Shown: positions 41,735 to 46,300 of the stretch, piece by piece | Layout of the letters: every line of letters begins with the position of its first letter | How positions within the stretch are numbered: the stretch's first letter is position 1 | Source of the DNA: Planctomycetota bacterium | Lineage (GTDB): Bacteria > Planctomycetota > UBA1135 > UBA2386 | Length of the DNA stretch: 64,000 bases | Direction: 5' to 3' | Assembly (NCBI GenBank): GCA_046290465.1 | Contig: JBKAGP010000001.1 | Span: 2,784,001 to 2,848,000, forward strand | Program-made: the position numbers and the translations under genes | The notes under the pieces: generated by a model | What the model saw: the letters and a program-made list of their open reading frames with translations, nothing else | Database searches by the model: none | What the model was told of the DNA's origin: nothing

Positions 41735-42244
41735 TCAGGCGGTTTCCTGCGACTGCAGCAGCCAGTGGTCCTTCTCGAGGTGGCCCAGCGCGCCGATCAC
41801 GAGGTCTTCGGAGACCGGGTCGTTGACGGCGATGTCGGGCAGCAGGTTGCGGCCGCGCTCGACGACCAGCGACAGATCGGTGCAGCACTGACGGATGGCT
41901 TCGCTGACGGTCAGGGCACCGGCCGGGAACTCTCCGAGGCGCATGTGCTCGGCGACGATCCGCGGACGGGCGTCGGCCTGGCCGCCGATCGTCACGACGC
42001 GTTCGGCGACGTCGTCGACGGTGCGCTGCACGTGCACCAGGATCTCGTCGAGCTGCTCGTGGATGCTCTTGAAGCGCGGACCGCGCAGGTTCCAGTGCGC
42101 CTGCTTCAGGCGCAGGGACAGGGCGACGAGGTCGACGAGCCAGATGTTGAGCCGTTCGCAGACCTCGCTGCGCTTGTGCTCGTCGAGGCCGAACGGAACG
42201 GGGCGGACGTCGGGAAGGGAAGACAGGGTCGAACTGATGGTCAT
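41735..42244 (-). CDS. dps: Dps DNA starvation/stationary-phase protection protein
   Basis: KQAHWNLRGPRFKSIHEQLDE, DDVAER, D.VSED, LEKDHW; alternative GTG start 42313 overlaps upstream stop. Confidence 0.92.
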   Translation of the reverse strand: MTISSTLSSLPDVRPVPFGLDEHKRSEVCERLNIWLVDLVALSLRLKQAHWNLRGPRFKSIHEQLDEILVHVQRTVDDVAERVVTIGGQADARPRIVAEHMRLGEFPAGALTVSEAIRQCCTDLSLVVERGRNLLPDIAVNDPVSEDLVIGALGHLEKDHWLLQSQETA

Positions 42245-42309
42245 AGGGTGTTCCATGGGTTTGGGAATGGGGACGGCGTCGGGACGCAGCGGCGACGGCT
42301 CCGGCTCGG

Positions 42310-42801
42310 TCACGAGCGCGCCTCTCCGACGACCGGGTCGTCGATCGCGACGATGCGCTGGTAGTCGCTGGTGCCGATCGCGGTCAGCGCCAGCGCCTCG
42401 AGGCCCTTCTCGTCGGCGACGTCGACGGCGACGAGGATCGCGCCGTCCTGGATGTCCTGGCTGCGCAAGAGCGCCTCGTTCTCGGGGATGCCGAGGCCGA
42501 CGAGGCCGCCGAGCAGGCCACCTGCAACGGAGCCGGCGAGCACGCCGACGATCGGACCGGTGAAGACCGCGCCGACCCCGACGAGCGCGCCGGCGACCAG
42601 GCCGCCGGTCGAGCCGAGGGCCACTCCGGCCAGCGCGCCCTTCTTGGCGGCGGTGCGTTCGGTCGCCATGAACGCCTGGCCCGACGCGCTGTCGGCGGCG
42701 AGCACCGAGATCGCGTCCGGAGCGAAGCCGGCGTCCTCGAGGTCTTGGGCCGCGCGGGACGCGCGCTCCTGGTCCTGGAAGATTGCGAGGATGCGTTTCA
42801 T
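42310..42801 (-). CDS. General-stress-type glycine-zipper membrane protein
   Basis: AIF...A..A..DL..AGF....ISVL, Gly-rich GG..GL.G helices, GLGIPE.EA, G.ILVAV. Confidence 0.75.
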   Translation of the reverse strand: MKRILAIFQDQERASRAAQDLEDAGFAPDAISVLAADSASGQAFMATERTAAKKGALAGVALGSTGGLVAGALVGVGAVFTGPIVGVLAGSVAGGLLGGLVGLGIPENEALLRSQDIQDGAILVAVDVADEKGLEALALTAIGTSDYQRIVAIDDPVVGEARS

Positions 42802-44892: not shown

Positions 44893-44902
44893 GATCCGGC
44901 GC

Positions 44903-46300
44903 ATGCCTACCGCTCTGCTCGTCGAGGACGACGCCGCGACCCGCCGCGCCCTGACCGCGATGCTCGAGCGCGACGAGTTCTCGACCACCAGCGCCGCGGA
45001 CCTCGACCGCGCCCGCAGCGCGCTGGCCAGCGGCACGTTCGACGTGCTGGTGCTCGACGTACACCTCGGCGACGGCACCGGCATCGACCTGCTGCTCGAG
45101 CTGCCGCGCGACCAGCGACCGCAGGTGATCCTGATGAGCGGCGACGAGTCGGTGCGGTCCGCGTTCGGCGCGATGCCGCTCGACCAGCTCGAGTTCCTGC
45201 GCAAGCCGATCGACTCCGGCGACCTGCGCCGGCTGCTGCAGCAGGTCCGCAAGCGCTGCAAGGCGCGCGACGACGCGGCGCGCGAGGCGAGCGAGAGCCT
45301 GGTCGGCGAGTCGACGGCGATCCGCCGGCTGCGCCAGCTGATCGACAAGGTCGCGCCCACCGAGCTGTCGGTCTACGTCGAGGGCGAGAGCGGCACCGGC
45401 AAGGAGCTGGTGGCGCGCGCGATCCACGCCAACGGCCCGCGGCAGGACGGCCCGTTCGTCGCGATCAACTGCGGCGCCCTGCCTGAGAACCTGATCGACA
45501 GCGAGCTGTTCGGCCACGAGAAGGGCGCGTTCACCGGCGCCGATGCGGCGCGCGCCGGCGTGTTCGAACGCGCCAACGGCGGCACGCTGTTCCTCGACGA
45601 GGTCGCCGAGATGCCGGTCGAGCTGCAGACCCGTCTGCTGCGCGCGCTCGAGACCCGCACCGTGCGCCGCGTCGGCGGTTCACGCGACATCCGAGTCGAC
45701 GTCCGGCTGGTGTCCGCGACCAACCGACCGTTCGATCGCGCGATCGCCGACGGCACGCTGCGCGAGGACCTGTTCCATCGCCTGTGCGTGTTCCCGATCG
45801 TGACGCCACCGCTGCGCGATCGCGGCGACGACGTGCTGCTGCTCGCCGAACGGTTCCTCGAGACCTTCGCCGGCCGCACGGTGCGCCCGACGGAGCGCAC
45901 CGCGGCGCTGCTGCGCAGCTACGGCTGGCCCGGCAACGTGCGCCAGCTGCGCAACGCGATGCAGCACGCGGCGGTGCTGGCCGACGGCGACACGGTCTCG
46001 ACACGCGAACTGCCCGCGCACCTGCTCGCCGACGCCGACGTCGCCACCACCGAAGGCGCGTTGTCGGACGAGGTCGCGGCGCCGACTGCGGCCGCCGCGG
46101 CGCCCATCGCGGCCGACGACGACCGCATCGCGATCGACGTCGGCACCTCGATCCAGGAGGCCGAGCGCCGCCTGATCGAAGCGACGCTCGAAGCCCACGA
46201 CGGCGACAAGCGCTCGGCCGCCGAGGTTCTCGGCGTCAGCCTGCGCACGCTCTACAACCGGCTCAACTCCTACGATCGCGACGACGGCGACGTCTCCTGA
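44903..46300 (+). CDS. Sigma54-dependent response regulator (NtrC family)
   Basis: REC (VEDD, LD, KP), GESGTGKE, GAFTGA, LFLDE, REDLFHRL, WPGNVRQL, Fis-type HTH. Confidence 0.95.
   Translation: MPTALLVEDDAATRRALTAMLERDEFSTTSAADLDRARSALASGTFDVLVLDVHLGDGTGIDLLLELPRDQRPQVILMSGDESVRSAFGAMPLDQLEFLRKPIDSGDLRRLLQQVRKRCKARDDAAREASESLVGESTAIRRLRQLIDKVAPTELSVYVEGESGTGKELVARAIHANGPRQDGPFVAINCGALPENLIDSELFGHEKGAFTGADAARAGVFERANGGTLFLDEVAEMPVELQTRLLRALETRTVRRVGGSRDIRVDVRLVSATNRPFDRAIADGTLREDLFHRLCVFPIVTPPLRDRGDDVLLLAERFLETFAGRTVRPTERTAALLRSYGWPGNVRQLRNAMQHAAVLADGDTVSTRELPAHLLADADVATTEGALSDEVAAPTAAAAAPIAADDDRIAIDVGTSIQEAERRLIEATLEAHDGDKRSAAEVLGVSLRTLYNRLNSYDRDDGDVS

Follow-up and report, generated by a model that had tools for sequence, protein, structure and literature searches.

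The 64,000-nucleotide stretch analysed here (the window) spans G000:C1:2784001-2848000, where G000 is a planctomycete genome assembled into a single 6.59 Mb contig of 70% GC and 94% completeness. The window contains a cluster in which genes for a LOV-domain histidine kinase and a sigma54 activator lie divergently to a predicted stress operon that includes dps, and sequence comparison suggests that this locus is likely one node in a general stress response that sigma54 runs across the genome. Close homologues carry a Planctomycetota label, and the GC content of the locus is that of the flanking DNA. An independent contig runs unbroken across positions 41000-45418, from which it differs at 97 letters, and the layout is therefore not an assembly artefact.

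The kinase gene ends and the activator gene starts 10 nt downstream, both on the forward strand. On the reverse strand a sigma54 promoter, a YflT-like gene, dps, a third gene (orfX) and a terminator-like hairpin follow in this order. A search for a sigma70-type promoter of the kinase operon found none. The features, with the basis of each assignment, are:

42949-44892 (+): hybrid histidine kinase of 647 amino acids (aa), LOV-HisKA-HATPase_c-REC-pseudoREC; Pfam, PDB matches and structural model
44903-46300 (+): REC-AAA+(GAFTGA)-HTH_8 sigma54 activator, 465 aa; Pfam and motif positions
42896-42917 (unstranded): two overlapping distal TGCA-N5-TGCA boxes (42896-42908 and 42905-42917), predicted enhancer (upstream activating sequence, UAS); motif score
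42841-42853 (unstranded): promoter-proximal TGCA-N5-TGCA box, predicted activator site, 11 nt upstream of the -24 element; 12.7 bits
42829-42815 (-): sigma54 -24/-12 element TGGCACGGAGCTTGC; perfect consensus, 13 nt before the ATG at 42801
42310-42801 (-): first gene of the predicted operon, YflT/general-stress-protein-17M-like membrane protein with glycine zipper, 163 aa; Atlas likeness and orthologs in loci L030-L033
41735-42244 (-): Dps-family mini-ferritin, 169 aa; Pfam Ferritin and solved Dps structures (E 4.6e-21)
41292-41675 (-): orfX, third gene of the predicted operon, 127 aa, with a signal-peptide-like N-terminus and a predicted OB-like fold; homologues in L030, L031 and L033
41281-41312 (-): intrinsic-terminator-like hairpin of 14 pairs with a T run at the end of orfX; sole site found in 41000-46600

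The LOV kinase and the adjoining activator

A sequence-only reading of this DNA had proposed a LOV kinase that retains the photoactive Cys, both Asn and the signalling Gln, directly followed by a GAFTGA activator, and the comparison with solved structures agrees on each residue. The motif GLNCRMLN carries the adduct-type C69, with Asn at its last position instead of the Gln of the usual NCRFLQ, and the flavin-binding Arg pair R70 and R86, the two Asn (N101 and N111) and the signalling Gln Q132 align with solved LOV domains. The 60 best PDB matches listed for the kinase are LOV-type proteins (top E 7.6e-35), and the LOV domain of YtvA is matched at E 2.8e-25. In the structural model the domain has PAS topology, and a single continuous helix (136-193) is predicted to link it to the DHp. 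LOV-kinase chimeras are the top structural matches of this model, whose mean pLDDT is 76 and pTM 0.38, so that the domain arrangement is unsure. By motif, residues and fold the domain fits the LOV photoreceptor class, for which flavin binding and a photocycle are predicted.

The phospho-acceptor positions of the kinase are H175 in HisKA and D462 in its own REC domain; a second receiver-fold domain at the C-terminus lacks the acceptor Asp. The protein has no predicted membrane segment (hydropathy maximum 1.07), and LOV is its one sensor domain in G000, the PAS-like upstream region of its relatives being absent. It is also the sole strong LOV match among the 59,562 six-frame open reading frames of this genome.

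The activator combines an acceptor Asp in REC (D52), AAA+ with Walker A/B motifs, GESGTGKE (161-168), GAFTGA (208-213) and a Fis-type helix-turn-helix, the features of a REC-type enhancer-binding protein. It stays below cut-off for each of the 25 NCBIfam families shown, among them NtrC, AtoC, ZraR and LuxO (best 380 versus 558.6 for NtrC), and fits none of the named families tested for membership (NtrC, AtoC, ZraR, LuxO, FlbD and NtrX). In a quick tree of 62 activators it falls inside a 26-row clade (Shimodaira-Hasegawa-like approximate likelihood-ratio test, SH-aLRT, 99), most members of which share the recognition helix G[IV]SL[KR]TLY[NST]RL. In G000 the clade has only two members among the 22 called activators; the genome has 31 activator-domain matches, 24 of them strong. 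Conserved adjacency makes kinase and activator a candidate cognate pair.

A plasmid search with the activator returned generic matches only, at about 44% identity. BerB of Burkholderia was considered as its match and ruled out, as BerB has no N-terminal regulatory domain in the description cited (PMC5552954).

The sigma54 promoter and its TGCA boxes

The divergent TGGCAC-N5-TTGC promoter that had been read from the sequence alone was found as a perfect site at 42829-42815 (-), with its core GGCA..G..TTGC invariant in 5/5 orthologous intergenic regions. Within the window the -24/-12 motif occurs once at up to one mismatch whereas shuffled sequences average 4.12, and the window count alone is therefore not above chance. 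Across the 6.59 Mb of G000 there are 15 perfect sites, and over the whole genome such sites show no excess relative to other spacings. In the intergenic DNA of this genome the correct spacing is enriched, with 46 sites versus 10-20 for five wrong spacings. The weight of the promoter call hence lies in position and conservation, not in the count. Consensus, spacing, intergenic position, conservation and two complete rpoN genes in the genome identify the site as a sigma54 promoter, whose dependence on sigma54 and on an activator bound upstream is a prediction.

Among the 46 intergenic YGGCAY-N5-TTGC sites, 16 have an ATG 10-17 nt past the TTGC, versus 6 of 72 wrong-spacing controls, which suggests that many sigma54 transcripts of G000 are leaderless or nearly so. 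The transcript of the window operon is likewise predicted to be near-leaderless, its ATG lying 13 nt past the promoter element (42802-42814).

Upstream of the -24 element by 10-11 nt, the proximal TGCA pair is invariant in 5/5 orthologous regions, and the remaining spacer diverges. Fourteen related loci supplied 25 sigma54-like promoters for a motif search by expectation maximisation, which left out the window, its orthologs and G000 and yielded wTTGYAGAAwsTGC. Applied to G000, this motif scores the window promoter at 16.7 bits at the distal boxes, rank 2 among 39 intergenic sigma54-like sites; a score of 12 bits is reached by six of these sites, versus 0.4% of 1500 random upstream windows. 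When the motif was trained solely on 10 promoters from Myxococcota and Deltaproteobacteria, the window promoter ranked first of the 39 at 15.8 bits, a score that none of the 1500 controls attained. The same motif places 4/5 orthologous promoters in the top 1%, that of G010 being the exception. Binding of the activator to the TGCA-N5-TGCA boxes is predicted on this basis.

The predicted divergent operon

A stress membrane protein and dps had been proposed behind the promoter, and both assignments stand. The first gene product has no Pfam match and resembles YflT-containing clusters of the Atlas (feature score 0.91, TM 0.73-0.80). The second keeps an intact ferroxidase set, with H50, H62, D66, D77 and E81 aligning with solved Dps proteins; we take these residues to have the ferroxidase role in the window protein. 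Its start was set by comparison with the orthologs, and an upstream GTG at 42313 is possible. Window Dps scores 93.4 against the NCBIfam Dps cut-off of 114 and has no Lys/Arg-rich terminus; because this basic tail is missing, iron handling appears better supported than DNA binding.

The third gene, orfX, has 11 homologue matches including itself, and the contig of L032 ends within dps. Its model (pLDDT 79.6) has weak matches to OB folds, and a Foldseek structure search gave no match at E<=0.001. As to the hairpin at its end, one site was found in 41000-46600 versus a shuffle average of 1.4, and only its position is informative. The three genes are predicted to be co-transcribed as one operon. 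None of orfX, the hairpin, the three TGCA-N5-TGCA boxes and the kinase pseudoREC had appeared in the sequence-only reading.

Conservation within and beyond the genus

The order of kinase, activator and promoter genes is kept in 4/14 same-genus genomes (G002, G009, G010 and G011, one contig ending inside dps); none of the other ten has a close activator ortholog or a LOV match. This shared order, together with the boxes predicted for the activator clade, bears out the earlier suggestion that kinase, activator and sigma54 promoter belong together.

Beyond the genus, genome contigs were scanned with a kinase alignment and at least 79 loci were kept. Eight loci among these listed matches hold a Cys-LOV kinase, and 8/8 also hold an activator of the window clade; they come from Myxococcota (2), Deltaproteobacteria (2), Planctomycetota (3) and a lineage-unlabelled genome (1). 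Scanning 56 hand-picked proteins identified as their neighbours CsbD, DUF1328, BON, DUF883, AI-2E, DUF3185, DUF3309, Fe/Mn superoxide dismutase (SOD), Usp, an encapsulin ferritin (EncFtn) and trehalose synthase. Several of these families are controlled by RpoS or SigB elsewhere. Of 400 other Planctomycetota genomes sampled evenly, 23 had a LOV match. We examined 20 of 30 Planctomycetota LOV places, five of them chosen for a known nearby activator; seven have an adjacent activator, two with the window-clade helix and five with the helix GITRGKVRDRI, and each of the seven has a DUF1328- or CsbD-like neighbour. The GITRGKVRDRI pairing (L237, L238, L239, L245 and L246) was seen in five genomes, all from the same planctomycete family; two of these genomes are single-contig.

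A dps match is absent from all eight other LOV-plus-activator loci among the matches listed and from all 20 examined Planctomycetota LOV loci. Because of this absence, Dps is best described, from the gene content compared, as genus-level cargo of a broader stress module and not its core.

A metagenome scan with an alignment of the activator REC domain gave 80 loci, mostly distant activators that have no GAFTGA; only L120 and L121 are close. Many activators on the metagenome contigs L123-L199 have no GAFTGA, with a similar helix (ISPKTLYNKL) and an adjoining efp-like gene where inspected. A CsbD-like match occurs in 28 of the 80 loci and a BON-like match in 14, mostly just upstream.

A probable genome-wide stress regulon

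The box of the window promoter recurs at other stress genes of G000. The other five sites of at least 12 bits precede two DUF1328 genes, a PRC-barrel gene together with its divergent neighbour, and a gene in a stress island. When 352 sites were scanned with looser criteria, a multi-BON-like gene and a further PRC-barrel gene joined the set, some sites lying far from called genes. The gene caller is a simple codon model that misses low-GC regions, so that these site counts are lower bounds. A DUF1328/lipoprotein-like/MscS trio that adjoins the activator in G011 (L030:10698-12650) lies 880 kb away in G000 (G000:3711597-3713349, L229), where it keeps a sigma54 site with a 14.3-bit box and 52-74% identity to the G011 trio. 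The trio of G000 adjoins groES/groEL-like genes.

The island lies around a paralogous activator at G000:4641366 (L040, G000:4633000-4649000; L231, L232), a member of the window clade with a similar recognition helix. It holds DUF1328, DUF883, PRC-barrel, DUF3185, DUF2383 and hemerythrin genes, a PAS-GAF-PHY bacteriophytochrome kinase, further kinases and three box-bearing sigma54 promoters. A short HisKA-like gene stands directly before the paralogous activator. A heme oxygenase beside the bacteriophytochrome was considered and dropped, as it had no Pfam support.

The sequence-only reading had gone further and described a self-contained circuit in which blue light turns on Dps as a dedicated photo-oxidative defence. 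All parts do lie intact within one 5 kb block. G000 has another dps-like gene immediately after a Fur-family regulator (G000:4954082-4955046, L233), and this could leave the window copy free for a different cue. Several related loci also carry SOD and ferritin-like genes. The self-contained character is not supported, however, as the same box stands before other stress genes across the genome and the helix of a paralogous activator is similar. Dps as the core of the circuit is not supported either: it is missing from the cross-phylum and phylum loci described above, the first operon gene is YflT-like, the outputs are general-stress genes and no photolyase match was found in the 94%-complete genome. 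LOV control of stress genes is, moreover, dark-on in E. litoralis. We regard a dedicated circuit of this kind as very unlikely.

The choice of sigma54 over the PhyR/EcfG and SigB routes, also part of that reading, is upheld by the genome content. G000 (94% complete) gave 0 matches for HWE kinases (HWE_HK) and none over cut-off for PhyR (PRK09191), RpoS and SigB; HisKA_2 was not searched.

The similarity between the two activators raises a further alternative, in which the window promoter is driven mainly by the paralogue. The LOV kinase would then act on other targets or do no more than damp the neighbouring activator, and the proximal box would serve in repression or as a 'governor'. Both activators belong to one clade with similar helices and one motif fits the promoters of both loci; the proximal box, 10-11 nt from the -24 element, is closer than nearly all training sites; and Hpt genes are encoded elsewhere. 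Against this, five genomes keep the local activator, the kinase and the operon together, and G009, G010 and G011 keep the boxes with no second match in the paralogues' range of 1e-95 to 1e-110 in genomes that are 89-90% complete (G002 has one). Control by the paralogue seems to us quite unlikely.

Proposed mechanism and the place of light

We consider it fairly probable that the LOV domain tunes autophosphorylation of the kinase at H175, that phosphate passes to D52 of the activator, and that the activator, bound to its boxes, drives the sigma54 operon and other stress promoters. This reading builds on the gene anatomy, the catalytic and chromophore residues, the conserved order, the conserved -24/-12 element with its boxes, and the boxes at other stress genes. 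Blue light, possibly together with flavin redox state, would be sensed through a flavin photocycle and set the level of autophosphorylation. Transfer from H175 to D52 could be direct, with the kinase's own REC domain as a tuning sink, or run via an Hpt protein encoded elsewhere. The phosphorylated activator would bind the distal TGCA-N5-TGCA boxes and open the -24/-12 promoter, for which either of the two sigma54 copies may be used. A near-leaderless three-gene message for the YflT-like protein, Dps and the orfX product would result, and other box-bearing stress promoters would be turned on as well. The proximal box may aid or limit activation.

Several points weigh against this reading. Hybrid kinases often pass phosphate on via Hpt proteins, and the nine Hpt matches of G000 all lie outside the locus. 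The paralogous activator could act at the same boxes. The promoter of G010 is weak, at 6.5-7.2 bits, a value reached by 7-15% of controls. An activator is missing near 13 of the 20 Planctomycetota LOV loci examined, the kinase scan gave best rows only, the compared genomes are kin and the activator tree was made by a quick method. Motifs of the NCRMLN/NCRFLN type were not found in the open-access papers searched, so the photochemistry of such LOV domains is a prediction.

Others concern the light input itself. Eleven related kinases keep the Cys and lose the signalling Gln (L034, L041-L045, L047, L049, L066, L240 and L241), L046 has Ala in place of the Cys in a frame broken by a stop, and L121 has no Cys motif; these variants adjoin the same activator type, and the pairing thus persists where the residues are lost. 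The four genus orthologs of the kinase bear an extra N-terminal PAS-like region, three of them also a hydrophobic segment, and light is therefore not the sole conserved input. Such observations would fit an alternative with the same wiring in which LOV reports flavin redox or acts largely independently of light, the main signal being general stress such as starvation, desiccation or osmotic change. The outputs are osmotic- and stationary-phase-type genes, a photolyase was not found in G000, and the cited passages on Brucella LOVHK describe an effect on the stress response and no light effect in culture (PMC4438053). The full set of chromophore residues is, on the other hand, kept in 5/5 genus LOV kinases, and LOV is the sole sensor that remains in the kinase of G000. 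Variant LOV domains can respond to light or to flavin reduction, and the Gln-less and Cys-less proteins treated in the passages cited were still able to signal light (PMC9098866, PMC4682037). The bacteriophytochrome of the paralogous island also suggests that light matters to the regulon. We consider an input in which light is not the main signal unlikely.

For the favoured reading, with light as input, its sign is a matter of judgement. According to the portion cited, stress transcription that includes dps is activated by E. litoralis LovK more strongly in darkness (10.1101/641647). In the window locus we judge activation by light somewhat more likely than activation in the dark.

Relation to described systems

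In the parts cited, the Brucella LOVHK-PhyR-RpoE1 (PMC4438053) and Erythrobacter LovK-PhyR-EcfG (10.1101/641647) pathways resemble the locus in having a LOV histidine kinase as input to a general stress response, with dps among its targets. Those kinases are, however, of the HWE type and act via PhyR/NepR on an extracytoplasmic function (ECF) sigma factor, whereas the window kinase is a HisKA hybrid whose partner is a GAFTGA sigma54 activator. Similarly, Bacillus YtvA and Listeria Lmo0799 are described as LOV sensors that modulate the SigB general stress response (PMC4844311, in part). YtvA is a LOV-STAS stressosome protein; the window kinase scores 128 against the YtvA cut-off of 250, and nothing in G000 passes the cut-off for SigB. 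Judged by its sequence, the locus would thus work like the LOV-fed responses of Alphaproteobacteria and Firmicutes, yet it falls outside both the PhyR/EcfG and the YtvA/SigB systems.

Two further systems share other parts of the design. The Pseudomonas aeruginosa BphP-AlgB-KinB system (PMC6932827) has a photoreceptor kinase acting on a GAFTGA-bearing NtrC-family regulator, but it senses through a bacteriophytochrome and represses biofilm and virulence genes, and the cited passages describe no sigma54-dependent stress operon. PexR of Myxococcus xanthus (PMC12754779) is an enhancer-binding protein that activates oxidative-stress genes at sigma54 promoters via dyad sites; in the sections cited it differs in being a one-component GAF/metal H2O2 sensor that controls ahpC and katB and involves neither a kinase nor light.

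Members of the activator clade itself are described in Ralstonia GMI1000, where Rsp1667 and Rsp1668, beside rpoN2 (PMC4676750, passages cited), carry the same SLKTLYNRL helix (E 2e-113 and 1e-86; locus tags matched by position). Their locus (L257, NC_003296.1:2067653-2094509) holds two clade activators, a DUF1328-like gene and an rpoN copy with a 13-bit upstream box, and neither a LOV kinase nor dps within the 27 kb examined. The cited part of that paper assigns no function to Rsp1667/Rsp1668 and reports that no metabolic role was found for rpoN2 (PMC4676750). The window locus suggests a role for an activator clade present in print only as genes of no assigned function.

According to a promoter-scan study, sigma54 sites are over-represented upstream of MscS and Usp genes in Planctomycetia; the main text of that study does not contain the terms 'general stress', 'Dps', 'CsbD' or 'light', and its supplement could list some of the promoters discussed here (PMC12316311). 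The passages cited from a comparative sigma54 paper contain none on LOV or light (PMC3162934). In the open-access literature searched, supplements aside, neither a pathway from LOV to sigma54 nor a comparable sigma54 general stress regulon was found.

The general stress responses described in the papers cited run under RpoS, SigB or EcfG, with LOV sensors feeding these, and a counterpart in planctomycetes and similar little-studied phyla is the gap that the locus may help to fill. We tentatively propose, with slightly less than even confidence, that Planctomycetota, Myxococcota and others that have no RpoS, SigB or PhyR may use a sigma54 general stress architecture run by one activator clade on TG[TC]A-N5-TGCA boxes, into which light was wired repeatedly: through LOV here, through a phytochrome at the paralogous island and through a second, unrelated pairing of LOV kinase and activator in another planctomycete family. 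If true, this would be a fourth architecture of the bacterial general stress response. The locus would provide a natural blue-light-to-sigma54 switch. It is also a small complete unit, made up of a soluble single-sensor kinase, an activator, a named binding motif and 147 bp of promoter DNA.

Neighbouring features

Just downstream of the activator, a small membrane gene followed by an HTH_3 regulator occupies 46474-47114; the orthologous loci have neither, and the pair probably lies outside the module. At 41179-41221, just past a DUF1579 gene, a 14-bp unit (GATCACACCGCGCG) is repeated three times in tandem, and the independent contig differs there.

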